38,750 nucleotides of DNA, from positions 1 to 38,750 of the forward strand of contig MNZP01000007.1 in the NCBI GenBank assembly GCA_001873675.1, given 5' to 3'. Each line of letters opens with the position of its first letter. The first letter of the stretch is position 1. The position numbers and the translations under genes were made by a program. Under the pieces are notes generated by a model that worked only from the letters and a program-made list of their open reading frames with translations, did no database searches and was not told the origin of the DNA. Positions 3,677 to 38,750 of this stretch are shown here, piece after piece. The stretch is from Syntrophaceae bacterium CG2_30_49_12 (GTDB taxonomy: Bacteria > Desulfobacterota > Syntrophia > Syntrophales > CG2-30-49-12).

Positions 3677-4618
3677 ATGGGTGAAAGACTAAAAGGTAGG
3701 GCAGCTGTGGTTACCGGCGCCGGTGGGGGAATCGGCCGGGAAATATCGCTGGCTTTGGCGGCAGAAGGCGCCGGCGTGGTGATTGTTGATCCGGGGGTAG
3801 CCAGAGACGGGAGTGGCACTGATCTTGCTCCTGCTGATCATGTGGTTTCCGAGATCAAGGCTAAGGGTGGCAAAGCCGTGGCGAATTACAGTTCTGTAAC
3901 CGATTTTAAGGTTGCCGAAGAGATAATCAAGAGTTGCGTAGAGAACTTTGGCCGGGTGGATATCGTCGTTAATTGCGCCGGTGTCTTGAGGGAACGGATG
4001 ATCTGGAACATGACCGAGGAAGACTGGGATCTGGTAATTGCCGTGCACTTGAAAGGCACCTTCAATCTCTGTCGTCACGCCTGTGTAAAAATGAGGGAAC
4101 AGGGCTTCGGCAGAATAGTAAACTTGACATCCGACGCCTGGCGGGGTACCGTAGGACAATGTAACTACGGGGCAGCTAAGGGCGGCATCGTCAGCCTGAC
4201 CAGGGCAATTGCCCGGGAGATGGGCCGCTATGGTGTTACTGCCAACTGTATCGCCCCTATCGCCGCCACGAGAATGACCATGACTGAGCAGGTAAAGGCC
4301 GGTATGACAAAGAGATTGGAAAGTGGCCTGATTACCAGGGCTTTTTATGATTCCTTCATGGCCATGCCGGGGCCGGAATATGTTCCCCCCATGGTGGTTT
4401 ACTTAGTCAGCGAAGCAGCGGCCAATATCAACGGGCGGGTGTTCCACGTGGAAAAAGGGAGAATTGCCATTTACTGTGAGCCGGTAGAAACGCTGGCCAT
4501 CTATAAGTCTGTCGAGAATGGCATGTTCAGGGTTGAAGAATTAGAGGAGTTTGTGCCCAAGACCCTCCTTACCGGTTATATCAACCCGGCGCCGGCTGAA
4601 CAGCCCAAGGCTAAATAG
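3677..4618 (+). CDS. Short-chain dehydrogenase/reductase resembling the MFE-2 (17beta-HSD4) (R)-3-hydroxyacyl-CoA dehydrogenase domain
   Basis: It has TGAGGGIG, NCAG and a Y-GAA-K catalytic motif, plus the MFE-2-like string GGKAVANYSSV...FGRVDIVVNCAGVLRER. I chose the start at 3677 because AGGAGG lies 8 nt upstream; the ORF also opens at 3656. Confidence 0.85.
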   Translation: MGERLKGRAAVVTGAGGGIGREISLALAAEGAGVVIVDPGVARDGSGTDLAPADHVVSEIKAKGGKAVANYSSVTDFKVAEEIIKSCVENFGRVDIVVNCAGVLRERMIWNMTEEDWDLVIAVHLKGTFNLCRHACVKMREQGFGRIVNLTSDAWRGTVGQCNYGAAKGGIVSLTRAIAREMGRYGVTANCIAPIAATRMTMTEQVKAGMTKRLESGLITRAFYDSFMAMPGPEYVPPMVVYLVSEAAANINGRVFHVEKGRIAIYCEPVETLAIYKSVENGMFRVEELEEFVPKTLLTGYINPAPAEQPKAK

Positions 4619-4733: not shown

Positions 4734-5243
4734 TTGAGGAGATACGAAACCATATTTATTGTACCGGTTGATCTGGGGAACGATGAACTTATGGAGTTGA
4801 TTGAGCGGTACAAGACGATCATCACAGACATGAAAGGTACCGTGGTTAAAATCGAGAAGTGGGGGCAGAGAAAACTTGCCTATGAGATCAAAAAACAAAC
4901 AAAGGGGTTTTATATTTTAATTGATTTCACGGCTGTTAGCGCTGTCGTTACTGAGCTGGAAAGAAAGTTCAAGATTGATGACAGGATTTTGAAGTTTATC
5001 ACGGTGAAGAGGGCCGACAAGGTTGATCTTAAAGAGATTGAAAATGAGATAGCCGCTGCCGGCAGGGAGGTAAAGGGAGAAGAAACCTCTCTTCCCTCTG
5101 AGGTAAAGACCGCGGCAGGCGGAACTGATAAGATAGAGGATGTGGTTCTTGCGGTTACAGAACTTGAAGCGAACGTAAGAGGTGAAGAGTCCGCCCCATC
5201 AGGGGTTACAGAGAAAGAAGAAAATACAAGGGGGGGCGAATAA
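4734..5243 (+). CDS. rpsF: 30S ribosomal protein S6, with a long acidic C-terminal extension
   Basis: The protein begins MRRYETIFIV...KWGQRKLAYEI. It uses a TTG start 7 nt after AGGAGG and is followed by S18. Confidence 0.9.
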   Translation: MRRYETIFIVPVDLGNDELMELIERYKTIITDMKGTVVKIEKWGQRKLAYEIKKQTKGFYILIDFTAVSAVVTELERKFKIDDRILKFITVKRADKVDLKEIENEIAAAGREVKGEETSLPSEVKTAAGGTDKIEDVVLAVTELEANVRGEESAPSGVTEKEENTRGGE

Positions 5244-8312: not shown

Positions 8313-9341
8313 CTAATACGCCTCCTCATACGCCAGATCCTCTCTGGTAATTTTTCCCTTAAACAATTTATAGGCCCAGAACTGGTACGCTAATACGATA
8401 GGTACGAAGATAAGGGCCAACACAAGCATGATGGTCAGGGTCAAGGAACTGGAAGAGGCATTGTAAGCCGTCAGGTTGTAATCAGGGTTCAGGCTCGAAG
8501 GGAACATCGTGGGGAACAGGCCGATAAACCCGTAAAACGTTGCTCCCACAATGGTAATCGCTGAAGAAAACCATGCCTTCCAGTAACTTCCCTTAACCAG
8601 AAAGACCTTGATACAAAAGAGAGCCAGGACAGTGATCAAGATGAAAACAAAGAGGAGGGGATGGGCTAAATAATTGTCATAAATCTGAGTGGAAAACCCA
8701 GAGGCAATCAGGAAAACAACCGCGACAGTCAATAGTGCCGGCCACAATTTTTGGGCCATCTCGCTTCCCCTTTCATGAAGAGCCCCCTCGCTTTTTACAG
8801 CGAGCCAAATTGAGCCATGCACGAGGAAGAGGAGGAGGAAGAGAACTCCCCCCAAGAGTCCATAGGGATTGAGCAAGGTAAAAAGTGTCCCGTGGTAGAC
8901 CCCCTTGGCGTCAATGGGGATACCCCGAAAGATATTGGCAAAGGCAACGCCAAAGAGTAGGGCGGGAACGAGGCTGCCCACAAACAGGCATGTATCCCAC
9001 AACTTCTGCCAGCGTGGATTCGCAACTTTATTGCGAAATTCTAATGAGACACCCCTGATGATCAGGGCAAAGAGGATAAGCATCAGGGCTGAATAAAGAG
9101 AACTGAACATTACTGCATAGACCAGCGGAAACGCCGCAAAGGTGACGCCACCGGCGGTAAGCAGCCAAACCTCGTTGCCATCCCAGAGGGGACCCATGGC
9201 ATTGTACATGATCCTTTTCTCTTCGTTATTTTTCCCTAAGATCAGAAGTAGGCTCCCAATGCCTAAATCAAATCCGTCGGTAACAAAATAGACGGCCCAC
9301 AACAGTACCCAAAGGAAAAACCATATTGCTTGTAAATCCAT
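8313..9341 (-). CDS. cydB: Cytochrome bd oxidase subunit II
   Basis: 342-aa polytopic membrane protein (DGFDLGIG, WDGNEVWLL) immediately downstream of cydA. Confidence 0.9.
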   Translation of the reverse strand: MDLQAIWFFLWVLLWAVYFVTDGFDLGIGSLLLILGKNNEEKRIMYNAMGPLWDGNEVWLLTAGGVTFAAFPLVYAVMFSSLYSALMLILFALIIRGVSLEFRNKVANPRWQKLWDTCLFVGSLVPALLFGVAFANIFRGIPIDAKGVYHGTLFTLLNPYGLLGGVLFLLLFLVHGSIWLAVKSEGALHERGSEMAQKLWPALLTVAVVFLIASGFSTQIYDNYLAHPLLFVFILITVLALFCIKVFLVKGSYWKAWFSSAITIVGATFYGFIGLFPTMFPSSLNPDYNLTAYNASSSSLTLTIMLVLALIFVPIVLAYQFWAYKLFKGKITREDLAYEEAY

Positions 9342-20297: not shown

Positions 20298-20588
20298 TTG
20301 GGAAAGCAAGAAATTTTCGACATCATCAGAAGCAGCAAACCGGAACTGGAATCCCGTTACGGAGTACGGCGGGTCGGACTGTTCGGCTCCTGCGTCAAAG
20401 ATCAACAGCGAAAAAAGAGCGATATTGATATCCTCGTAACCTTCAGCCGTGACATCGATCTTTTCGACTTTGTTGACCTGCGGGAATTCTTGGAAAAAAG
20501 ACTACATACCAAGGTTGATCTGGTCATGGAATCAGCTCTCAAACCAACCATTGGCAAGCGTATCCTGGCCGAGGTCGAATATGTCTAA
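20298..20588 (+). CDS. mntA: Nucleotidyltransferase-domain antitoxin (MNT)
   Basis: It has the GS-x(n)-DxD motif (LFGSCVKD...SDIDILV). It uses a TTG start and is paired with the downstream HEPN gene. Confidence 0.8.
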   Translation: MGKQEIFDIIRSSKPELESRYGVRRVGLFGSCVKDQQRKKSDIDILVTFSRDIDLFDFVDLREFLEKRLHTKVDLVMESALKPTIGKRILAEVEYV

Positions 20589-20931
20589 AAGGCGGGAGAT
20601 AGCCGATTACCTCGATGACATCTTGACCGCCGTATCCGAAGTAGAGGAATTCACCCGTGACATGACCTACGAGACATTTGCGGCAGACAAAAAGACCGTC
20701 AATGCCGTGATCAGGAGCCTTGAAGTTCTTGGCGAAGCCGCCAAGCACATCCCCGCATCTTTTCGCAAAAGGTATCCCGACATCCCCTGGAACAAAATGG
20801 CCGGCATGCGGGACGTGCTTATCCACGATTATATGGGCGTTGATTTGAAGACCGTCTGGAAAGTCGCTCATGAACGGTTGCCGGAGTTAAAGCCCTTGTT
20901 CAAAGGGCTAAGCCTTAAAAAAAGAGATTGA
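20581..20931 (+). CDS. hepT: HEPN-domain (DUF86) toxin
   Basis: It has an R-x4-H motif (RDVLIH) and the DUF86-like string YLDDIL....I..F. Its start overlaps the MNT stop by 8 nt. Confidence 0.85.
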   Translation: MSKRREIADYLDDILTAVSEVEEFTRDMTYETFAADKKTVNAVIRSLEVLGEAAKHIPASFRKRYPDIPWNKMAGMRDVLIHDYMGVDLKTVWKVAHERLPELKPLFKGLSLKKRD

Positions 20932-21031
20932 AATCAAATCGCAATTACCCCTCATGAATTTCCCAATTCCGCCGATTCTGCCAAGGACAAACATAGCGCA
21001 GCGGAATGCAATATCAGCGATTTTCAAGAAG

Positions 21032-21328
21032 CTAAAAGTCAGCAAATGATTTGCCTTCCAGGTAGTCAGGGAAGGCATAGATTCCAGTAACCTGCATCCA
21101 GCAACCCTGCTTCCTCGACCACTCTGGTAATCGGACAGCAGTAACACATGCCTGTGACAACGTACCTATTGATCTTGTATTGGCTCCTGGCTCTACCCAG
21201 CGATGCTCCTGGAGGAGGCCATCGTAGATATCATCAACTGTGCTGAATGAGCTGGCTTGCAGCACTTTTCCCCACTCAGCATCAGTGCATGAACCCTCAT
21301 AGACGACCGACTTTGGATCAAAACCCAA
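21032..21328 (-). CDS. Hypothetical protein (98 aa, TTG start)
   Basis: This is an ORF only, with no recognisable motif. It is the only sizeable ORF in this stretch. Confidence 0.3.
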   Translation of the reverse strand: MGFDPKSVVYEGSCTDAEWGKVLQASSFSTVDDIYDGLLQEHRWVEPGANTRSIGTLSQACVTAVRLPEWSRKQGCWMQVTGIYAFPDYLEGKSFADF

Positions 21329-21492
21329 GTCTTCTATATGTGGCGGTAGCAGTGATCTGGTTTAACTTCGCTGCAAAGGAGAACAAACCCATCTTTAAAT
21401 AAGGTGTCTTGCTCCGCTGCCTCGTAAAGCCTCAAAGAATTCTCTGGCCGTTTTCTTAGTAAAACCAATGGTGTATATGGTCACTGGGAGCC

Positions 21493-22009
21493 TCACAGTG
21501 GGAGTGAAAGTTGATTGATTCCCACCCCTGCTCTCTCCTTCCAAAGCTCTTCATAAGTTTGAATTTGACCACTGCCACGAATATGCAAGATTTGAACACC
21601 TTCTCGCCGCAAACTCTCGCCAACCAACAAGTTGCGGTGGCAAGAGGAAGGATCCTCTTCAGCACACATCACACAGATACGATACTTCTTCAAACCTTCC
21701 AAAAGCCGACTGATTCCATGTTGAAACGACTCTTTACTTTGCATTGACTGATAGTCCGGTTTACCTGTTTGCGGATTGTAGCAATCTGGGTCACCAGGAC
21801 GACCTCCCAACACATCGCCTAGATAGAGATATTGAATTCCTACTACTTTCAGAATCTGCTCCAAATCATGCGGATTTGTATAAGGCCCAGGGACTACCAG
21901 GATTACTTCGTACATCCACGAGAACCTTAATTTCGGTCTGAGTCAGCAACCGTACAAATGTGTCAGGTGAGTGATTGCTGTGGCCTATCGTGTAGATATT
22001 ACTATCCAT
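21493..22009 (-). pseudogene. DUF488-family gene split by a frameshift
   Basis: The minus-strand ATG at 22009 opens MDSNIYTIGHSNHSPDTFVRLLTQTEIKVLVDVRSNPGS..., which stops at 21866. The rest of the family signature (GIQYLYLGDVLGG...CVMCAEEDPSSCHRNLL) continues in another frame (ORF 21493-21915). Confidence 0.7.
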
Positions 22010-22013
22010 CTCG

Positions 22014-22223
22014 CTAAGCTACCTTTCCCCCAACCAATAAAATAGCATAAGTACCGCTCTTAAGCGACCTACCAAGCAGGATTCGAATTGGTTTTGAATT
22101 GAGTGAAGTAGGAACAGTAGAAGATTGCAATTTCAAAATCAATGGTTCCCCCATAACATATTCGAACCAGTTCGCACATTCTGCCGTTTTGAGGTACATC
22201 TGAACTATTTCAGAAGTATCCAC
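22014..22223 (-). CDS. Hypothetical small protein (69 aa, GTG start), 5 nt upstream of the DUF488 start
   Basis: This is an ORF only, with no SD. Its placement immediately after the attC-like site and before DUF488 is suggestive. Confidence 0.25.
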   Translation of the reverse strand: MDTSEIVQMYLKTAECANWFEYVMGEPLILKLQSSTVPTSLNSKPIRILLGRSLKSGTYAILLVGGKVA

Positions 22224-22239
22224 ACTTCTATAGAAGAAA

Positions 22240-22314
22240 GCCCAACGCTCAGCTTAACCGGCTGGCAATGGAGCGCAGCGGAACTGCCAGTCTGAGTTGA
22301 TGCGGTGGTTAGGG
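22240..22314 (-). mobile_element. attC-like recombination site (75 nt)
   Basis: The minus strand reads CCCTAAC-CACCGCATCAACTCAGACTGGCA-GTTCCGCTGCGCTCCAT-TGCCAGCCGGTTAAGCTGAGC-GTTGGGC. That gives an R'' box, an imperfect stem, a loop, and an R' box matching GTTRRRY exactly. The 3' half resembles the GGCTTAACTCAAGCGTTAGAT of the aadA7 attC as I recall it. Confidence 0.6.
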
Positions 22315-22353
22315 GCCATTTTACGAACCAGATGTATCATGAGTACAAATGCT

Positions 22354-22378
22354 ACTCATAGTCTGTAGACTTTTAGAC
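22354..22378 (+). promoter_or_regulatory. C-box operator for the controller protein
   Basis: ACTCATAGTC-TGTA-GACTTTTAGAC matches the known C-box pattern (GACT-N3-AGTC, TGTA, GACT-N3-AGTC) of C.PvuII/C.AhdI-type systems. It lies 23 nt upstream of the C gene ATG. Confidence 0.8.
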
Positions 22379-22400
22379 ATCTTTTGTCGATATTCTTGCC

Positions 22401-22619
22401 ATGAATAGAGATCCCAAAACAACCCTTGGTGAGAACATCTGGCGTCTCCGAAAAAATGCCGGCTGGTCACAAGAAGAACTTGCTGAAGCTTGCGGTCTTC
22501 ACCGAACCTATATCGGTGCAATTGAACGTGGTGAGCGAAATGTGAGCCTTCAGAATATTGTGGAGATCGCTCGTGCGTTAGGGGTGACTGCTTCCGATCT
22601 TGTGGAGGGAATTTCGTGA
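22401..22619 (+). CDS. Restriction-modification controller (C) protein, XRE-family HTH
   Basis: 72 aa with W.QEELAE..GLHRTYIG.IERGERN.SL.NI..IA.AL. Its stop overlaps the start of the downstream endonuclease gene. Confidence 0.85.
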   Translation: MNRDPKTTLGENIWRLRKNAGWSQEELAEACGLHRTYIGAIERGERNVSLQNIVEIARALGVTASDLVEGIS

Positions 22620-23215
22620 TGCCGTCACCATATAGAGGGCTGAAACCCAATCGATGGCTCGAAATAACAAAAAAGTTATTGGACAACCACCCTCTCGCCC
22701 AAGATGAAATAGTTGATGTAGTTCTCTCGGTGTGGAAATCGATATTTGACTCCAAAATGGGTACAAAGGGATTCCGTATTGGCAAAGACATATTTCCGAA
22801 GCCACAAATAATGGGTTTCTTTTTGCATGAGCTCATTCCCCTCGAACTAGCAGCGCGATATCCTAATAAATGGCGAGGAGAAAAAAATACATCTGACAAG
22901 GACATTGTTTATATACCTGACGATAGATACTCCATTGAAGTCAAGACATCTTCGGACCCAAACCATATTTACGGTAATCGAAGTTACGCCCAGGCAACTC
23001 CATCGAAAGGAAAGAAAGCAAAATCTGGATATTATTTGGCGGTAAATTTTGAGAAATTTTCAAAGACAATTAAATACCCCCACATTAGGCTCATACGTTT
23101 CGGGTGGCTCGATTCCGAAGATTGGATGGGGCAAAAAGCTCCTACAGGCCAACAATCTCGATTACCAACCGAAGTAGAGAACAATAAGCTTCTGGAACTC
23201 TATCGGAAACCTTAA
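22619..23215 (+). CDS. Type II restriction endonuclease candidate (PD-(D/E)xK)
   Basis: About 198 aa with D-x(n)-E-V-K (DKDIVYIPDDRYSIEVK). It is translationally coupled to the C gene (GTGATG) and converges on the methyltransferase. A GTG start at 22616 is the alternative. Confidence 0.65.
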   Translation: MPSPYRGLKPNRWLEITKKLLDNHPLAQDEIVDVVLSVWKSIFDSKMGTKGFRIGKDIFPKPQIMGFFLHELIPLELAARYPNKWRGEKNTSDKDIVYIPDDRYSIEVKTSSDPNHIYGNRSYAQATPSKGKKAKSGYYLAVNFEKFSKTIKYPHIRLIRFGWLDSEDWMGQKAPTGQQSRLPTEVENNKLLELYRKP

Positions 23216-24234
23216 AAAAGCTTCATTTGACTCTGTGCGATTCGTCTCTTCTTTTTAAACGATTCAAATCTATCAACTGCTAGTTGGCAATATTCTGTTT
23301 TTAATTCAATTCCAATAAAGAGCCGCCCCAACCCATACGCAGCTATCCCTGCAGAAACTGAACCAGCAAAAGGATCAATTATCATATCCGCTTGCATAGA
23401 AGATGTTTTAATTATTCTTTCTACTACCCCAAGTGGGAATTGGGCTGGGTGCCCTGTGCGTTCCTTCGAACTGCGTTTGATTCCAGTAGTGACTTTTGGA
23501 AACTCCCATACGTCTGATGGATTCTTCCCAAGCGGATTACATCTATATTTACCGTCCTTTTTTTGATTAGGGTATTTTACGTTCGGATCACGGATTTCAT
23601 CGAGGTTGAACGTGTAGTTTTTTGGATTTTTAACATAAAACAGCCACTTCTCATTACGAGGGCTTAAGTGTCGTTTTGTGGAGACTCCAGCTCCATAATG
23701 CCAGACAACTTCCTGCAAAAGATAGAATTTTGATTTATTCCACAATAAGTAAGGAATAGGCACGCACAAACCCTTTTGAGGCACCTCCAAATAGCCGACA
23801 TTTAGCCAAAATGACCCGTATTCTTTGGTTATTTCATAAATCTTGTCCATCCATTTCTCGCACCATTTTATGTAATCCTCGACATCCAATGGGCTTTCGT
23901 ACTCCTTTCCAATATTGTAAGGAGGAGAGGTTAAAGTTAAATCTACCTGAATTTCATTATCAGCCATTTTTTCAAGGAATTCTGTTGAATCCCCTTGATA
24001 TAAAATAAAACCATTATCTGAATAAAATGGCTTACCAATTGCGCGGTGAAGTGATTTTTCAACTACCAAATGTTTTTCATCGAGCTTTTGTTTTAAATCG
24101 ATTGGAAATGGACACAGAAGAGAAGATGGTGCTATAGCCGTGGGTTTGTGTTTATCGATCCCATTCGCCACATATGTGTTATACTCTTTGGTAGCGATTT
24201 TACGGGATCTATCCTCTGGTATTCCAATTTGCAT
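23212..24234 (-). CDS. Beta-class amino DNA methyltransferase, probably N4-cytosine
   Basis: Motif IV TSPPY (LTLTSPPYN) precedes motif I DPFAGSVS, which is the beta-class order. SPPY rather than DPPY favours N4mC. Confidence 0.85.
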   Translation of the reverse strand: MQIGIPEDRSRKIATKEYNTYVANGIDKHKPTAIAPSSLLCPFPIDLKQKLDEKHLVVEKSLHRAIGKPFYSDNGFILYQGDSTEFLEKMADNEIQVDLTLTSPPYNIGKEYESPLDVEDYIKWCEKWMDKIYEITKEYGSFWLNVGYLEVPQKGLCVPIPYLLWNKSKFYLLQEVVWHYGAGVSTKRHLSPRNEKWLFYVKNPKNYTFNLDEIRDPNVKYPNQKKDGKYRCNPLGKNPSDVWEFPKVTTGIKRSSKERTGHPAQFPLGVVERIIKTSSMQADMIIDPFAGSVSAGIAAYGLGRLFIGIELKTEYCQLAVDRFESFKKKRRIAQSQMKLF

Positions 24235-33002: not shown

Positions 33003-34685
33003 CTATTTCGTAAGTTCCCGAAGGATGTATTCTGGCGTAATGGGTAGGCCATCGTACCTTAGAATTTGCTTCTCAATCAGAAAGCCACTCTCTCGTCTGA
33101 TCAATCCCGCCAGTTGCCCGGTAGCATTTCCTTCTAAAGAAACCACCTCCCGGGCACCCTGCAGATAATCCATAAACTGTTCAGACACCAGGGGCCAAAT
33201 CTGCGAAAAGTGGAGAGTAGACACATTTTTCCCAGTATGCCTCATCTGAGAGGCTGCTTTTAAAACTGCACCCTTCGTTGATCCCCATGATACCATAAGG
33301 AGGTCTGGTCTTTTATCCCCTTCCATCTGCGGGGGGATCGCCTCCGCCCTTATTCCTTTTCCCTTTTTGAGACGCTTTTCCACCATCCGTTGGCGCACCG
33401 TCAGGTCCTCGGTAAGATGGCCGTCCTCGGTATGCTCATCGCTATCGGCAACAACAAGCTGCATAGATATCCCCGGCAGCAACCGCGGAGATATGCCGTT
33501 ATCCGTCAGGGCATAGCGTTGATAGGGGGAAGATGACGAGGCCGGATCGGAACCGGGGCTTACAGGGGACAGGTTTTCAACGTCAAAGGGCGCCACGGCT
33601 CGATAGGAGTCGGCGAGAAACTGGTCGGTCAAGATAAAGATCGGTCCCTGGTATCGTTCCGCCAGCTCGAATGCCCTGTATGTCAGGTGGAAGCATTCTT
33701 CCACCGTGCCGGGGGCAAGAATGGCGCGAGGGAATTCTCCATGACCGGCGTAGAGAACAAAATTCAGGTCCGCCTGTTCGGTGCGTGTAGGAAGTCCGGT
33801 GGCCGGCGCCGGGCGTTGGGCTACCACGATAACAACAGGGGTTTCGGTCATCGCCGCCAGGCTCACCCCCTCGACCATTAAGGCGAAGCCGCCTCCGGAA
33901 GTGCTCACCATACTCGGCGCACCGGCAAAAGACGCCCCAAGGGCCATATTGATGGCGGCAATTTCATCCTCCGCCTGTTCCACGATCGAACCCATCCTTT
34001 CGGCCCAGCCTGCCAGGGCGATTCCTATAGAGGTTGACGGGGTCATCGGATAGAAAGAGTAAAATTTCAATCCGGCGGAAAGCGCCCCCAGGGCAATCGC
34101 CTCGTTTCCGTTCATGATCAGGCGTTTCGGGGGATCGGAGACAGGTGGGAGTTTCGAAAAGGATACGGACCGGCCCGTTGTCCAGCGAAAGGCGTTACTC
34201 AGCGCCAAGCGATTTTCCTCAGCGGTCTTCTGGTCCATCTTGCCGAAGAACTTATCCATTGTCCCGGCGATTGATTCTTCGGTAAGACCAATGATGGAAC
34301 CAACAACACCAAGGGCGGCGATATTCAAGAACCCCTGTTTGGCCAATTCCTTGAAAGGCACCCTGAGGGAGACGTCATCGGAGATGCCAAACGCCTCATC
34401 GGCAATAATAATCCCATCAGGGGAGATTTCATGGCGGTGCAACGTCATTGTCTCCTCATTGAGAGCCACAAGAATATCTATCGTTTCCAGTGGGGCAATT
34501 ACCCTATCGGCGCCTGCATGGATAGTGTATGTGTTGTGACCGCCGCGAATCCTGGAGTGGTAGCTCTGGGTCACGACAATTGAATAGCCGCTGCGCACCA
34601 GACTTTTGGCGAGTATCTGTCCTATTGTCACCAGACCCTGGCCTGCCTCTCCCCCGATGAGCAAGTTAACGCTGTTTCTGTTCAT
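33003..34685 (-). CDS. korA: 2-oxoacid:ferredoxin oxidoreductase alpha subunit with a fused N-terminal gamma domain
   Basis: 560 aa. The N-terminus (GGEAGQG..T.G.ILA) is the gamma domain, followed by an alpha domain (FYSFYPMTPST). Confidence 0.85.
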   Translation of the reverse strand: MNRNSVNLLIGGEAGQGLVTIGQILAKSLVRSGYSIVVTQSYHSRIRGGHNTYTIHAGADRVIAPLETIDILVALNEETMTLHRHEISPDGIIIADEAFGISDDVSLRVPFKELAKQGFLNIAALGVVGSIIGLTEESIAGTMDKFFGKMDQKTAEENRLALSNAFRWTTGRSVSFSKLPPVSDPPKRLIMNGNEAIALGALSAGLKFYSFYPMTPSTSIGIALAGWAERMGSIVEQAEDEIAAINMALGASFAGAPSMVSTSGGGFALMVEGVSLAAMTETPVVIVVAQRPAPATGLPTRTEQADLNFVLYAGHGEFPRAILAPGTVEECFHLTYRAFELAERYQGPIFILTDQFLADSYRAVAPFDVENLSPVSPGSDPASSSSPYQRYALTDNGISPRLLPGISMQLVVADSDEHTEDGHLTEDLTVRQRMVEKRLKKGKGIRAEAIPPQMEGDKRPDLLMVSWGSTKGAVLKAASQMRHTGKNVSTLHFSQIWPLVSEQFMDYLQGAREVVSLEGNATGQLAGLIRRESGFLIEKQILRYDGLPITPEYILRELTK

Positions 34686-35098
34686 GGTATTTCATCCCTC
34701 GCTGTTATAGCAAACGACAGAAATAAATTTAAAAGTTATTAAATACCATCAGGCTGACTCGCTCTTTCACAAAATGACATTTGAATATTAGTTACTAACC
34801 CCCATGCCCGGCGCGGGCACAACAAAGCATGAAAATTATCAAGTAGTTGGATTTATTTTCATATAAAGTCGTAAGGTTAGAGATTATTTTGGCAGAATAT
34901 TTTTTGCTGTCTCCGGGATCCCTTTACAGTAAATCGTTTGCGGAGATTTTTTTCAAATCTAACTTTAAGAAAATTCTCCAAAACTTATTTGGTTCCGGCT
35001 TCGCCGGGTTAGGAGTAAGCAAACAAATGCTGTCTTCACCTACAAAGCAACAAGCGTGGTGGATGAAAAATTTTGAGGATTTGCGTTTGAAATGATGG

Positions 35099-35161
35099 AT
35101 CTAACGTAAAGATCAGCCAGAACCGGGTTTCCAGGCGATTGGCTGCATCGACTTGTTGGCT
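35099..35161 (-). mobile_element. attC-like recombination site (63 nt), 6 nt after the HNH gene stop
   Basis: The minus strand reads AGCCAAC-AAGTCGATGCAGCCA-ATCGCCTGGAAACCCGGTTC-TGGCTGATCTTTAC-GTTAGAT. The R' box matches GTTRRRY exactly, and the L''/L' stem has one extrahelical G. Confidence 0.65.
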
Positions 35162-35167
35162 GATTCT

Positions 35168-35722
35168 TCAAGGTTTTGTCTCAAATTTACGCTTCAATAT
35201 TTCGTAGATTTCTCTTTGTTCAGATTTCGAGAGCTTTCTGATTTTCGCTACGATGTTTAGAGCGGTCTCACTGGGTGGCTGTAGGTTTGCTTTGCCTTGA
35301 TTGCAGGCAGAACAGGAGACCCGGAGATTGTCCTTATCATCGGTGCCACCTTGGCTTATGGGAATTATATGATCAATGTGTAGCCTTACCTTACGGTGCG
35401 GATTAAAGGGATCGGTGTCGCCCGGACCGGCGCCGCAAAGCTGGCAGGTGAACCCGTTACGTTCAAGTATCTCGTTTCGTAGTTGAGGGCTGATGGTTCG
35501 TGCAATGACCAGCATTTGGTCAAGGGCCTCTAATATGTATTCGCCGGGTTTCAAGTCTGCTCTGTCTATGTGAGTTTTGATCTGAAACCCTTCCTCATCG
35601 CGTAGCTCTCGTATTCGGCGACCGTACTCGCTGACACCGGCAACCTTGCGGAGTTGCTGGGTCGTCAAAACCTTTCCGACATTGGATAGAAAGTGCTCTC
35701 TCAGCTTGTCTCGTGCACCCAC
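35168..35722 (-). CDS. HNH endonuclease with an N-terminal winged-helix domain (putative restriction enzyme)
   Basis: It has CQLCG...(x)..HIDHIIP...GG.D..DNL...C..CN. The GTG start follows an AAGGAG inside the vsr 3' end. It is the last gene of the dcm-vsr operon. Confidence 0.75.
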   Translation of the reverse strand: MGARDKLREHFLSNVGKVLTTQQLRKVAGVSEYGRRIRELRDEEGFQIKTHIDRADLKPGEYILEALDQMLVIARTISPQLRNEILERNGFTCQLCGAGPGDTDPFNPHRKVRLHIDHIIPISQGGTDDKDNLRVSCSACNQGKANLQPPSETALNIVAKIRKLSKSEQREIYEILKRKFETKP

Positions 35723-35724
35723 AG

Positions 35725-36135
35725 CTACTCCTTTTCAGCAAACCGCTGAAGGCGTCTCATAAGAGCGGTTTCATCTTTTGTTTGACATTGCCAAATAACG
35801 AGCACAGACCAACCTTCTTTCTTCAATTCGCGGAGGTTCCGGCGGTCTCTTGCCATATTCCCATCGATCTTTTTATCCCAGAAAACCCTGTTAGTTTCCG
35901 GCCTTGCCGCTCTCGGACAACCTTTGTGCCCATGCCAAAAGCAACCGTGGACAAAGACCGCTTTCTTTTGGCCTCGAATCACCATGTCAGGTGTGCCTGA
36001 TAATCTCCTTACGTTTCCCCGAAATCGTATTCCGAGATTTCTAAGACAGCGTCGTACCAACTTCTCGGGTAGAGTGTGACACCCTTTGATACTCGCCATA
36101 ATCTGTTTCCGTTTTTGCTCCGTAAACCTGTCCAT
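35725..36135 (-). CDS. vsr: Very-short-patch repair endonuclease
   Basis: It has TLPEK.VR..L...G.RFR....L.G.PD.V......AVFVHGCFWHGH.C and WSVLVIWQC. I chose the MDRFTEQ start at 36135 by alignment to E. coli Vsr. Confidence 0.88.
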   Translation of the reverse strand: MDRFTEQKRKQIMASIKGCHTLPEKLVRRCLRNLGIRFRGNVRRLSGTPDMVIRGQKKAVFVHGCFWHGHKGCPRAARPETNRVFWDKKIDGNMARDRRNLRELKKEGWSVLVIWQCQTKDETALMRRLQRFAEKE

Positions 36136-37348
36136 CAGCTGTCGCTTTCCTGCTCGTAAACAGGGAAAGGACGCAGTCCGCAACTCTGGCGGCGAGCATC
36201 GGCGGGACGGCGTTGCCTATCTGTTTTGCGATTTCAATTTTGGTGCCTACAAACCTGAACGAGTCGGGGAATGATTGGAGTCGCGCTGCCTCGCGGTGAG
36301 TAATAGGGCGGTGTTGACTTGGATGCAAATAGCGCCCTTTTTCCGGCTTAAAGAACTCGGTACGTATGGTGAAGGCAGGTCTGTCCCACCAGAGCCTGCC
36401 GAAAAGGTCGGTACCGCCTTGTGTTTTGCGAATCCAGCAGGGGGGCGTGATTTCGGGTGCACGTCTTTGAAGATCAAAACGATTCATTCCTTCTTTGGGA
36501 ATCGTCTTGTATCTCTCCAAACTCAAGGATGTCGGCGTTCTTCCGAAGTGCAAATCCAAAGGCGGCTGTACCTGCCGGATTTCCGTGCCGACCGGTTCGG
36601 GAAGATCGCCGATCGCGGTCCGAACCGTTCGCCAAGGCTGTACCTGAGAAATATGCTTATTAAATTCGTCGGTAAAAAGAAGGCCCGTTTCCAGCCCTTC
36701 AGGCCTTCGATGTGTTTTCTTGGGCGGGAAAAACTTTGATGGGTCGGTAAACTTGCAACCGACAATAAATGCCCGCCAGCGGGTTTGAGGAACTCCGTAA
36801 TCGGCAGCACAAAGTTTCGCCCAGGACAACTTGAAACCGAGAGATCGGGCAGCAACAACTATCTCGTCATGTTCCTCAGACCCGAGCAATTGAGGAACAT
36901 TTTCCATTACAAAAACCTGTGCGCCGGTATGTTCCACAATTTGGAGATAAGGACGCCAAAGCTGTTTTCTATAGTCGTCCTTCCGTTGTTTATTTAGAAG
37001 GCTGAAACCTTGGCAGGGCGGTCCTCCAATAACCACATCGGCTTTCGGTATCTCACTAATGCGGTTCTCAACTATTTCCAATATGTCGTCGGTTGTGCAG
37101 TGACATCCGAAATTGGCCGCATACGTTTTTGCGGCATAAGCGTTAAAGTCGTTTGCCCAGACAGGTACAAATACCTGTCCGAAGAACTGTGAAAAACCAA
37201 GTGTAAGACCGCCTGCGCCGCAGAACAGGTCTACCAGTCTATAACTGGGGCCGGCATCGCGTAGTAACCCTGCCTGCCTTAGAGAATATACCGATTCATC
37301 GTCAGATAGCGGGTAGAGTCGAGCAGATGTTTTAGTTTTTTTGGTCAT
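36041..37348 (-). CDS. dcm: DNA (cytosine-5)-methyltransferase
   Basis: It has motif I DLFCGAGG, motif IV GGPPCQGFS, motif VI ENV and motif X GNAVPP. Confidence 0.93.
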   Translation of the reverse strand: MTKKTKTSARLYPLSDDESVYSLRQAGLLRDAGPSYRLVDLFCGAGGLTLGFSQFFGQVFVPVWANDFNAYAAKTYAANFGCHCTTDDILEIVENRISEIPKADVVIGGPPCQGFSLLNKQRKDDYRKQLWRPYLQIVEHTGAQVFVMENVPQLLGSEEHDEIVVAARSLGFKLSWAKLCAADYGVPQTRWRAFIVGCKFTDPSKFFPPKKTHRRPEGLETGLLFTDEFNKHISQVQPWRTVRTAIGDLPEPVGTEIRQVQPPLDLHFGRTPTSLSLERYKTIPKEGMNRFDLQRRAPEITPPCWIRKTQGGTDLFGRLWWDRPAFTIRTEFFKPEKGRYLHPSQHRPITHREAARLQSFPDSFRFVGTKIEIAKQIGNAVPPMLAARVADCVLSLFTSRKATADGQVYGAKTETDYGEYQRVSHSTREVGTTLS

Positions 37349-37588
37349 GTTTATATTATGCCTGTTTCTGAGCCTGTAAGCAATAAATTAATGATTTATA
37401 TGTCATCATTTCGCCAGCCAACAAGTTATTCTATAGTTTCCGAATAACTCCACAACTCAAGAAGTTCTTTTTGGGCTATAGACAACGATCATTTATTAGT
37501 TATCTTTGTACCCGCAGTCTACCCCACTCATATCCCATTGATACTATTTAAGAAGGATACTTAACATTACAACGCCGGTAATTATTGT

Positions 37589-38531
37589 TCATGAAGGGTG
37601 ATCCTTCAGCCATTTTTTCTTATGAGAGTTTCTGGATTTTTCTTTGTTACGCTGCTGCTTCATAAACCAGGCGATCACGTCTTGAGGGTTCCAGGTGATT
37701 CTCGGGAGAACTACCTCCAGGAGCCTTCGGATCTCAGGAACTGTAGCCGACACACATTTTTTCCCCCCATTGCCGCTGTACGGCTTTCAGGAATGCAAGG
37801 GCAAGCATGGAGAGGGTGATATGGTGATACCAGCCCCGATATTTCGTCAGTTCATAATGGTCGAGCCCGACTTCACCCTTGGCCAGCTTGAAGTCCACCT
37901 CGATGCTCCAGCGCTGACATCCTGCCCAAGCCATTTCGGAGATGGAGACGGTCTCCGGGGCGTTGGACAGGTAAAACTTGATCTCCCTATCTCCTGTTTG
38001 CAGAGATCTCCGGATCATCAGCCAGGAAGCCGGTCCCGGTTCCCCGTTCCGTTTCTCAAAGACCCGCAGGCGAGCGAATTCAAACTCCCTCGGTCCCTTG
38101 TCCCCTTCACGCAGACAGATGCGCTGCCATTGATGGTCAGGAATAGAAGAGACGAGAGACGATGCAGTCACGGCAGGCGGAGATCCCTCCGTCGGTTTCG
38201 GATGCTTCGGTTTTCTTCCCCGTCTGTTCTCCATAACCGGTGGTACTTTCCAGGCAGGGTCGTCCGTCCAGACATGGGTGTCGTAATAGACTTCGAAACA
38301 ATACCATTTGCCCAGTTCCGCAACGTGTTTCCGAAACTCATGCGCATCCCCGTAAGCGCAGTCCCCGCTGACCCACTGAAAAAGCATAAGGCCTCTTTCA
38401 TGGGCCCTGTCCAGCATCTCCATGGCCAGCTCAATCTTCGTCTTGAATCGAACATCTTGAGGAATGCCCGCTCTTTTCCTTCTACCGGCGGCGGTCTCCT
38501 CAAACCACTGAGACAAAATATACGGCTCCTC
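37589..38531 (-). pseudogene. IS701-like (IS4-superfamily DDE) transposase remnant, 5'-truncated and frameshifted
   Basis: The ORF 37734-38516 starts in the middle of the family (..GIP..V.FKTK.ELA..ML; WVSGDCAYG; W.IE..FK..K...GLD.YE...Y.GW.HH). The N-terminal about 150 aa, including the first catalytic D, are absent, and the frame closes at a TAG near 38531. The C-terminal 48 aa (TVPEIRRLLEVVLP...) continue in another frame after a G6A6 run at 37755-37768. Confidence 0.7.
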
Positions 38532-38750
38532 GCTATTTCGTGTGGGTTACTGATATTAATAAAATCAGATAGTAATGAAAATTATGCATAGCATTTGGAG
38601 CCATTTATGCCTGTTAATTTACGGCCCATAATGGGCCTACAATAACTGATAGCTCCATAATTACAGGATGTTATATCAAATTACGCACAAAAGATTGGTA
38701 ACGTTCAAAAGTTGAGGCAAACCTTTTTTTATAAACTTTTTTATCGCATC

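Follow-up and report, generated by a model that had tools for sequence, protein, structure and literature searches.

The restriction-modification operon

The sequence analysed here (the window) comprises 38,750 nucleotides of Syntrophaceae bacterium CG2_30_49_12, positions 1 to 38,750 of contig MNZP01000007.1. Towards its right-hand end lie three genes and a candidate promoter:

36041-37348, minus strand: dcm, C5-cytosine DNA methyltransferase, 435 aa (Pfam PF00145, E = 2.8e-59; PADLOC MTase_II)
35725-36138, minus strand: vsr, very-short-patch T:G mismatch endonuclease, 137 aa (Pfam PF03852, E = 1.7e-25; PADLOC Vsr)
35168-35722, minus strand: HNH restriction endonuclease, 184 aa (Pfam PF01844, E = 4.6e-13; PADLOC REase_II, E = 2e-10)
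37355-37383, minus strand: putative cassette-internal promoter (TTGCTT 37383-37378, 17 nt, CATAAT 37360-37355)

An earlier note on this DNA had described the three genes as tightly coupled, and this is evident from the 98-nt overlap of the dcm 3' end with vsr and the 2 nt between the vsr stop and the HNH start. The N-terminus of the HNH endonuclease is a winged-helix region with a weak Pfam match to HTH_39. In the Escherichia coli dcm-vsr pair, the C5 methyltransferase gene overlaps the downstream vsr, coupling methylation with repair of deamination damage. The window operon shares this overlap with E. coli and with Dcm/Vsr-containing type II restriction-modification (RM) systems, but differs from E. 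coli dcm-vsr in its cognate HNH endonuclease, which would make it a complete RM system. By Pfam and PADLOC, a methyltransferase and an HNH nuclease are encoded together, as is characteristic of type II RM; thus the operon is best read as a complete type II RM module, with RM activity predicted from its gene content. Vsr would serve in the module to repair T:G mismatches arising by 5-methylcytosine deamination.

The trio is kept in dozens of loci, and 1,456 of the 1,500 scored candidates are HNH homologues at E ≤ 1e-10. The Dcm protein is 92% identical in amino acids to the copy at loci L101/L143. The candidate promoter hexamers and their 17-nt spacing are conserved in L101, L105, L111 and L113, with differing spacer sequence. 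The candidate is under the threshold of a consensus scan, so we treat it as putative; only 6 nt separate its end from the dcm start codon, which implies an mRNA with little or no leader. The module thus appears to carry its own promoter, with activity predicted from the conserved hexamers. A second RM module, ScaI-like, is present in the window at 22402-24234.

An intact attC site behind the HNH gene

The earlier note had proposed that the 63 nt beginning 6 nt after the HNH stop have the architecture of an attC, the recombination site of integron gene cassettes. The site reads as follows:

35099-35161, minus strand: attC site, matched by covariance models R1 and R2, canonical geometry, 6 nt past the HNH stop
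35161-35155, minus strand: R'' AGCCAAC, then spacer AAGTC 35154-35150
35149-35147, minus strand: L'' GAT, then bulged G 35146 and stem CAGCCA 35145-35140
35139 and 35138-35120, minus strand: unpaired A and variable terminal structure, 20 nt together
35119-35114, minus strand: stem TGGCTG, then L' ATC 35113-35111 and spacer TTTAC 35110-35106
35105-35099, minus strand: R' GTTAGAT

Every proposed element is there. The R' box matches GTTRRRY at seven of seven positions, and R'' matches RYYYAAC at six of seven (G at position 2). Published attC sites measure 57-141 bp, with some 5-6 nt of unpaired central spacer in each arm and a terminal structure that varies; here both spacers (AAGTC and TTTAC) are 5 nt, the terminal structure is 20 nt and the total 63 nt. 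[quoted passage not shown] Correspondingly, GAT-G-CAGCCA-A pairs with TGGCTG-ATC, leaving a bulged G, a 6-bp stem and an unpaired A (T in the bottom strand).

Two covariance models were applied. For R2 the sole training sequences were eight attCs of class 1 integrons taken from plasmids, those of aadA1, aadB, catB3, aac(6')-IIa, aac(6')-Ib, aac(6')-IIc, dfrB1 and blaVIM-2. Its sole significant match in the window was full length, at 35099-35160 on the minus strand, with 25.2 bits and E = 3.4e-4 (a rough value from a shortened calibration); the next-best match had E = 7. R1, built from 11 attCs of an unrelated metagenomic array, L143, with the attC of the RM cassette excluded, scored the site at 64.2 bits with E = 1.5e-15 (equally rough, for the same reason) and the opposite strand at 14 bits. 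The earlier note had staked its claim on a covariance-model match at 35099-35161, and both models return one, full length and on the minus strand only. A comparison with Rfam matched no attC here, and the single match it returned was due to chance. Beside the ScaI-like RM module, a weak attC match at 22240-22314 (minus strand; E 6-7 with both models) was rejected, having non-canonical geometry and a fold z of about 0.

A scan of the window for the architecture, allowing one mismatch, found 2 matches against 2.4 in shuffled sequences, and the significance of the site therefore comes from the covariance models and the comparison with related loci rather than from the window alone. The earlier note had also suggested folding the bottom strand as a check. 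An 81-nt stretch does not stand out by its minimum free energy (z about −1.1). When 71-81 nt are folded as a single sequence, an alternative register is chosen because CAGCCA is present twice, and the canonical fold is obtained only from the 63-nt site itself or from the circular-form site. With the 5' end of the cassette supplying R', the bottom strand has the complete attC hairpin as its minimum-free-energy fold (−12.9 kcal/mol).

RNAalifold returned no structure from a MAFFT alignment of 11 sites, since 3' spacers of 8 and 9 nt shift the alignment columns, and was replaced by a length-homogeneous alignment with a hand-specified structure. Among orthologous attCs located by position alone, the stem shows compensatory changes (CAGCCA/TGGCTG, CAGCGA/TCGCTG, CAGCGG/CCGCTG and GACGTT/AACGTC), and covariation is present within A2 as well.

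The closest known counterparts are attCs of class 1 integrons, above all those of blaIMP-1 and blaVIM-2. These and the aadA1 site have the same geometry: R'' NNNNAAC is followed by 8 nt, a base bulged out of the AAC arm, a stem of 6 bp, an unpaired A and the variable terminal structure, and then by the other strand of the stem, 8-9 nt and R' GTTRRRY. The blaIMP-1 site reads TTCTAAC AAGTCGTT G CAGC..., and the window site AGCCAAC AAGTCGAT G CAGCCA. The top-strand G bulge is shared with the blaIMP-1, blaVIM-1 and blaVIM-2 attCs, so that the first extrahelical base of the bottom strand would be C, as in the VIM/IMP sites, rather than the usual G. Unlike the class 1 sites, the window attC has a 3' spacer of 8 rather than 9 nt, and it lies in the chromosome of an uncultured groundwater deltaproteobacterium, Desulfobacterales-like going by its nearest korA relatives, rather than in a mobile integron. 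The 63-nt element is an intact attC of the same sequence type as those of the L143 array.

Cassette boundaries, related loci and flanks

The boundaries of the cassette and the features around it are:

35105-37421, minus strand: integron gene cassette of 2,317 bp, bounded by the TT that follows the left crossover (G 37422/T 37421) and by the R' G at 35105
37422-37560, minus strand: left flank, 140 bp, not attC, ending in AACTTG, of which G 37422 is the left crossover half
34686-35104, minus strand: right flank from the crossover to the korA start, beginning TTAGAT, AT-rich
37561-38526, minus strand: truncated DDE_5 (IS701-like) insertion sequence (IS; PF13546), with right inverted repeat 37561-37578 and transposase remnant 37734-38516
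38527-38750: end of a second repeat element, with terminal repeat TCGCTATTTCGTGTGGGT, which truncates the IS and at which most assemblies break

The left boundary, 73 nt upstream of the dcm start codon, is the junction AACTTG/TTGGCTG at 37427-37415. The first six bases of the cassette, TTGGCT (37421-37416), are complementary to AGCCAA in its own R'', and an exact 12-mer is repeated in inverted orientation at 35151-35162 and 37415-37426. A 12-nt inverted repeat within 2.5 kb has a chance expectation of about 0.2 by our own estimate, and this one runs 4 nt past what the cassette model predicts (ACTT versus AAGT), an extension that may be chance (about 1/256). Junction, hexamer and repeat all lie where the earlier note had placed them.

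Comparison with other loci fixes the boundaries independently. By blastn, window positions 37426 to 35102 align with L143 at 86.9% identity, with zero homology beyond. The limits, G/TTGGCT (37422/37421) and GTTA (35105-35102), are the predicted crossover points. Locus L142, a contig that holds only the last 27 HNH residues (96% identical), departs from the window after GTTAG, the alignment ending at 35101. The homology of the RM block with both loci thus stops at the G/TT crossovers, in agreement with the cassette of about 2.3 kb that the earlier note had implied. The 63-nt sequence is likewise not a vertically inherited intergenic region, the refutation which that note had considered, as it travels with the RM block into the unrelated contexts of L143 and L142. 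More distant copies (L115, L125, L126 and L132) combine R'' AGCGAAC with a start at G/TTCGCT (G/TTCGCTG in L125 and L132). Thus the 5' end changes in concert with the R'' of the same cassette, 2.3 kb away, TTGGCT with AGCCAA and TTCGCT with AGCGAA, as expected if a cassette carries its own partner for R''.

L143, from another metagenome, is a true array, large and of the sedentary type, with at least 15 attCs on one strand; at 12 of its junctions R' is exactly complementary to the R'' that follows. The dcm-vsr-HNH block, at about 87% DNA identity to the window, is one of its cassettes, so the search for the same 2.3-kb block within an array had a positive outcome; its neighbours there include toxin-antitoxin pairs and a ThsB-TIR gene. 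The RM cassette also has attCs ahead of it in L126 (5 attCs) and L115, and in L125 it is again solitary, with radical-SAM genes on one side and ferredoxin/AOR genes on the other. Many RM homologues are without the 63-nt element, for example L103, L105, L108 and L113. No integrase was found in the loci retrieved, 20 kb of L143 included, and none was seen in L143, L126 or the scaffold L003 described below; the label 'integron' therefore rests on the attC arrays and not on intI. Exact-protein look-ups of korA and HNH found contigs of the same population only, and the RM cassette is in every one of those listed. In this population the cassette is fixed.

Within the window the cassette stands alone among core metabolic genes, korAB adjoining. 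The window ORFs include no tyrosine recombinase or Phage_integrase-type protein and do not amount to a complete integron (intI, attI, Pc); R1 and R2 each find only the one attC there. The 140 bp of the left flank gave no attC with R1, R2 or the architecture scanner, and neither an attI nor homology to another locus; this flank contains an 8-bp hairpin, AGTTATTC/GAATAACT, at 37424-37449 (z = −2.9). The earlier note's view of this flank as less than a complete attC, with the cassette at a site other than an attC, is therefore supported. The right flank (about 414 bp) has no second attC and no ATCTAAC partner for R'. A second GTTAGAT at 34958-34964 was considered as an attC and rejected, having no matching structure.

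The IS remnant that the earlier note had mentioned is the truncated DDE_5 element 140 bp from the cassette. An intact copy of 1,484 bp with inverted repeats CTTAACAYTACAACGCCG is found in L001 (5341-6824), and the window copy is cut at 38526. The element lacks a visible target-site duplication, pointing to rearrangement.

A SALIN is a single attC lacking an integron-integrase, and insertion of cassettes by attC × attG recombination at a GWT consensus has been described (Loot et al., bioRxiv 10.1101/2022.09.11.507474). In the window, coding sequence is accompanied by one attC, and neither an integrase nor a further att site lies close by; with a left junction that is not an attC, the locus is a SALIN. 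An empty site was not found among GTDB genomes, where the nearest relatives of korA reach no more than 75% protein identity and keep no synteny past korAB.

Origin of the solitary cassette

We consider it probable that the RM operon, an integron cassette with an intact attC, became solitary through integrase-mediated insertion at a genomic GTT, recombination of attC with a genomic site being the most likely route. An integron integrase would have released the cassette in circular form through attC × attC recombination. The folded bottom strand of its attC would then have recombined at A/AC (G/TT of the top strand) with a double-stranded, non-attC chromosomal GTT upstream of korAB, ...GAATAACTTG|TTAGATCC..., replication resolving the intermediate. 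This would leave the cassette's own TTGGCT at its 5' end and the target-derived TTAGAT after the attC. Having no attC on its left, the resulting SALIN would be poorly mobilisable, but it could be expressed from its own promoter.

The locus resembles described SALINs and attG insertions in being a lone, probably independently expressed cassette with an attC and no integrase or other att site nearby, and its crossover at a genomic G/TT is consistent with the GWT consensus. It differs in that the event is natural, in an uncultured anaerobe, and that the cargo is a three-gene RM operon of 2.3 kb. In addition, the IntI1 hot-spot motif CRGM at +6 to +9 is absent (TCCA here), and the same scaffold may hold a cassette array not far away.

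That array bears on the first alternative. Scaffold L003 (GCA_002771815.1), from the same population at 99.9% identity, carries a true array about 3.5 kb upstream in the same orientation, its last attC about 3.6 kb from the RM attC, with attCs at 427, 1223, 2850, 4639 and about 4740-4890 and with matching R' to R'' pairs (GTTAGCC to GGCTAAC, GTTAGCT to AGCTAAC, GTTCGCG to CGCGAAC); it is also present on an independent, unscaffolded contig, L145. A search for the adjacency of array and RM cassette through the GGDEF-EAL cassette protein gave only one other contig, which stops at the end of that gene. The earlier note's statement that no integron surrounds the operon thus holds for the window, with its single attC and no integrase; beyond it, L003 places an array a few kb upstream across an IS-filled gap, and the RM cassette may not always have been isolated.

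The cassette could accordingly be the distal member of a chromosomal array (a degraded integron or a CALIN, meaning a cluster of at least two attCs that lacks an integrase), separated from the rest by IS insertions and IS-mediated rearrangements, which the missing target-site duplication of the DDE_5 element would suit. We regard this as rather unlikely. The link from array to cassette crosses a 28-N scaffold gap inside multi-copy IS sequence, where L003 also has an inverted copy of the second repeat element, and a sister strain (L001/L002) has other genes past the IS. The DNA at the left crossover is not an attC, so the junction would be non-canonical even inside an array. Moreover, the RM attC is of another type, with a top-strand G bulge and 64 bits under R1, whereas the attCs of the L003 array have a C bulge and score 18-33 bits.

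It is also conceivable, though improbable, that integrase-mediated deletion made the left junction, a formerly preceding attC having recombined with a secondary GTT upstream, with the DNA in between lost and AACTTG/TTGGCT left. Deletion would produce a junction indistinguishable from that of insertion, experiments have shown that integrases can excise imprecisely at genomic sites close by (bioRxiv 10.1101/2022.09.11.507474), and the possible neighbouring array would provide a setting for it. However, an extra earlier event would be needed to bring the cassette beside korA, and the right flank has neither further cassettes nor features of an array end.

A terminator or chance hairpin with a coincidental 12-mer repeat, in an operon moved by other means such as the adjacent IS, is extremely unlikely: the 81-nt fold, the chance frequency of the architecture pattern, the many homologues without the element and an IS only 140 bp away would permit it, but both covariance models match, orthologous attCs show compensatory changes, homology in independent contexts breaks exactly at the crossovers, leaving out the IS and the 140-bp flank, the R'/R'' rule is true in L143 and L126, and a single IS copy is present. 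Transfer by a composite transposon or borne by the IS was ruled out, as what the other copies share with the window includes neither the IS nor the flank.

Under insertion at a genomic GTT, the locus joins two phenomena already in the literature. Defence cassettes, RM systems among them, are known from sedentary chromosomal integrons (bioRxiv 10.1101/2024.07.02.601686), and mobile integrons encode phage defence systems (bioRxiv 10.1101/2024.07.02.601719). As in the sedentary-integron cassettes, a type II RM system is packed here as one cassette with compact, overlapping genes; the differences are that three genes and 2.3 kb are at the large end, that the Vsr repair nuclease is included, and that the cassette lies outside any array in the window. 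The earlier note had called a three-gene defence system travelling as a lone cassette unusual, which overstates its rarity, as multi-gene defence cassettes and lone cassettes have both been described. With RM cassettes and SALIN/attG insertions both published, the window locus adds an instance.

The Dcm-Vsr-HNH cassette occurs in at least three unrelated arrays (L143, L126 and L115) and is solitary in at least two unrelated genomes (the window and L125); in others it is present but lacks its attC. We suggest, tentatively, that it has repeatedly escaped from integrons. Rare insertions of attCs at genomic sites could become fixed more readily because the cassette brings a promoter and RM systems are addictive, and the ScaI-like module at 22402-24234 might be an older, decayed example. 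If recurrent escape is true, such loci offer natural junctions for testing the rules of attG sites beyond E. coli and IntI1.

The locus is a natural example, from an uncultured subsurface bacterium, of a complete RM system that moves as an integron cassette and settles outside an integron beside core metabolic genes, and a donor-type array (L143), both recombination junctions and several independent contexts of the cassette are available together. Environmental data thereby support the experimentally proposed route by which cassettes enter genomes through non-canonical sites. The Dcm-Vsr-HNH module is added to the list of defence cassettes, and current understanding is illustrated and extended rather than changed.

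The restriction-modification operon and its candidate attC

The dcm, vsr and HNH genes are all on the minus strand and closely spaced (Pfam). They lie between a truncated insertion sequence (IS) on the left, upstream of dcm, and korA, korB and then core genes on the right; the window region encodes S6, L9, DnaB, a sigma-70 factor, cytochrome bd, MutL, MiaA, UvrC and KorAB. The host is an uncultured groundwater deltaproteobacterium, Desulfobacterales-like as judged by its nearest korA relatives. Window-like contigs (99.1–99.9% identity) are present in numerous assemblies from a single site, including the MAGs GCA_002771815.1 and GCA_002788015.1.

Operon genes and left-hand neighbour
36041-37348, minus strand: dcm (Pfam); type II methyltransferase (PADLOC)
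35725-36138, minus strand: vsr (Pfam); Vsr (PADLOC); overlaps dcm by 98 nt
35168-35722, minus strand: HNH nuclease (Pfam); type II restriction enzyme (PADLOC)
37561-37578: right inverted repeat of the truncated DDE_5 (IS701-like) IS left of the cassette; full copy in a sister strain

An earlier note had read 35105-37421 as an integron gene cassette with an attC at 35099-35161, and a direct check of the sequence found all of its sequence features where it had placed them. On the window sequence alone, the attC features are statistically not compelling: an architecture scan tolerating one mismatch gave 2 matches in the window versus 2.4 in shuffles, an 81-nt fold around the site had z ∼ −1.1, and an Rfam search returned no attC match in this region. 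The sole other architecture match (9097-9180, minus strand) falls within the ORF for cytochrome bd subunit II, was missed by both covariance models described below and was judged to be chance. In the circular form, where the cassette's own 5′ end supplies R′, the minimum-free-energy fold is a complete attC hairpin. The inverted repeat 37415-37426/35151-35162 is exact, and 4 nt of it (ACTT/AAGT) run past the R box into target-derived DNA; this extension is not predicted by the cassette model and may be chance, at about 1/256.

The same cassette in other loci and arrays

Among 1500 candidates scored, 1456 HNH homologues were found at E≤1e-10, and ∼40 operon-carrying loci were compared. In eight contexts a site of the same architecture directly follows the HNH stop: [NNNNAAC], 8 nt, a single bulged base, a stem of 6 bp, an unpaired A, a variable structure, the second strand of the 6-bp stem, 8–9 nt and [GTTNNNN]. 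Orthologous sites were located through position only, and their stems carry compensatory changes (CAGCCA/TGGCTG, CAGCGA/TCGCTG, CAGCGG/CCGCTG and GACGTT/AACGTC).

In the clearest comparison locus, L143 (JGI Ga0374666_023), at least 15 sites of this kind lie on a single strand and separate small genes that share one orientation, among them HicAB, PemK, a Phd-type antitoxin and ThsB-TIR. One L143 cassette is the RM operon, whose proteins are 88–92% identical to those of the window. In 12 junctions R′ complements the next site's R″ exactly, the signature left when cassettes are cut and joined at G|TT. L126 has the same arrangement with five attCs, and in L115 an attC lies upstream of the RM cassette.

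Several side observations concern these loci. At L143 4400-8240 an IS66-family element, with a DruA-like (PF14236) ORF between tnpB and the transposase, sits inside an array cassette whose flanking attCs keep the R′/R″ rule (GTTCGGT ... ACCGAAC), and a block of four genes (79 aa, 73 aa, HicB, HicA) is present twice in the array. In L129 (4938-7090) and L132 (861-3389) a 258–261-aa HNH_2 (PF13391) ORF replaces the 3′ part of dcm and the entire vsr, with the cassette ends and attC kept. Upstream of the RM copy in L111, an attC-like sequence (3727-3840) has both core triplets altered (AAC to AAT, GTT to ATT).

When window 34600-37900 was compared with L143 by blastn, only 37426 to 35102 aligned (86.9% identity). 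At the left end the two share GTTGGCTG and then diverge upstream; at the right end ...GTTA(G) is common to the window, L143 and L142, whose sequences differ beyond it. The window and L143 copies start G|TTGGCTG and have R″ AGCCAAC, and the distant copies L115, L125, L126 and L132 (∼68% DNA identity) start G|TTCGCTG and have R″ AGCGAAC. Since the start differs together with R″, the cassette's opening bases covary with a box that lies 2.3 kb from them, something to be expected only when a circular intermediate joins the two ends.

Two attC covariance models were built, R1 from 11 L143 attCs with the RM attC left out and R2 from 8 class 1 attCs. Class 1 integrons were taken from plasmids via attI1, and the attCs of 13 resistance cassettes were read; these share their geometry with the window attC, and those of blaIMP-1 (TTCTAAC AAGTCGTT G CAGC), blaVIM-1 and blaVIM-2 have a top-strand G bulge, as it does. 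The attC proposed in the earlier note was matched full length, on the minus strand, by both models.

Covariance-model matches
35099-35161, minus strand: R1, full length, 64.2 bits, E 1.5e-15; next best on the opposite strand, 14 bits
35099-35160, minus strand: R2, full length, 25.2 bits, E 3.4e-4; next best E 7

R2 also picks up attCs in L143, L126, L125, L132, L142, L003 and L145. The window attC agrees with published traits (PMC5027507): extrahelical bases on the top-strand AAC arm with a 6-bp stem between them, a bottom-strand distal extrahelical T, a central spacer of 5–6 nt and a length of 57–141 bp.

The best sub-threshold match of both models (22240-22314, minus strand; E 6–7) adjoins the ScaI-like RM module of a second defence cluster (20449-24234), and GTTAGGA occurs near the other end of that module. 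As an attC this candidate was rejected, its geometry being non-canonical and its fold unremarkable.

Second defence cluster
20449-20931: HepT-like toxin
About 22402-23215, plus strand: HTH controller and RE_ScaI of the ScaI-like RM module
23212-24234, minus strand: N4/N6 methyltransferase of the same module

Solitary state and a possibly nearby array

No second attC was found in the window by R1, R2 or the architecture scanner, no tyrosine recombinase was present among its ORFs, and the 140-bp stretch to the left of the crossover is not an attC and matches nothing else. The RM cassette is therefore a SALIN (single attC lacking integron-integrase) as defined by Loot et al. (bioRxiv 10.1101/2022.09.11.507474), who counted 3400 SALINs in RefSeq and showed experimentally that integrases insert cassettes at genomic GWT sites, named attG. 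The target as reconstructed, AACTTG|TTAGAT, includes a GTT; under simple insertion at this genomic GTT, the uninterrupted target would have been GGAAACTATAGAATAACTTGTTAGATCCATCATTTCAAACG. In L125 another member of the cassette family also stands alone, independently of the window copy, with a radical-SAM/SPASM gene on one side and ferredoxin/AOR genes on the other.

The earlier note's statement that no integron surrounds the operon holds within the window, but L003, a scaffold of GCA_002771815.1 from the same population, continues into a cassette array, so the RM cassette may not be isolated. This array, which lies past the truncated IS and a second repeat element, is genuine, with matching R′/R″ pairs, and the unscaffolded contig L145 confirms it. 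Its link to the RM cassette is weakened by several points: the join between the two passes through 28 Ns within multi-copy IS sequence, a sister strain has other genes at the array position, the DDE_5 IS is without a target-site duplication, and the array attCs have a top-strand C bulge, a type unlike the RM attC. The left junction of the RM cassette is non-canonical whether or not the array lies next to it.

Besides BrnT-type and DUF4258 genes, the array (L003 1-4890; L145 1-5913) contains two unusually large, housekeeping-like cassettes, which encode a 481-aa phosphofructokinase and a 556-aa GGDEF-EAL protein. The nearest relatives of these two proteins belong to a cyanobacterium (71% identity) and a gammaproteobacterium (63%), respectively; an attC of ∼150 nt lies at L003 4740-4890. 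The second repeat element (window 38527-38750; L003 4906-5160) truncates the DDE_5 IS, with TCGCTATTTCGTGTGGGT as its terminal repeat and TAACGTTCAAAAGTTGAGGCAAA as a subterminal motif. Most assemblies break within it, at 38644-38664, where L003 has its N-gap. Inside it, 38609-38650 is an imperfect palindrome, GTTAATTTACGGCCCATAATGGGCCTACAATAAC, in which GTT precedes AAC, so that its polarity is opposite to that of an attC.

A putative promoter and the place of the finding

Published work already describes integron cassettes that carry type II and type IV RM systems or other defence systems, as well as SALINs and attC × attG insertion; the RM cassette is a real and neatly documented finding, but of kinds already known. 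Upstream of dcm, TTGCTT-17 nt-CATAAT ends 6 nt before the ATG and is kept in several divergent copies with varying spacer sequence, which suggests a putative cassette-borne promoter giving a leaderless transcript. Because the motif scores under the threshold of a generic promoter scan, the promoter is one that we infer. A promoter of its own would free the operon from the integron Pc and suits life outside an array.
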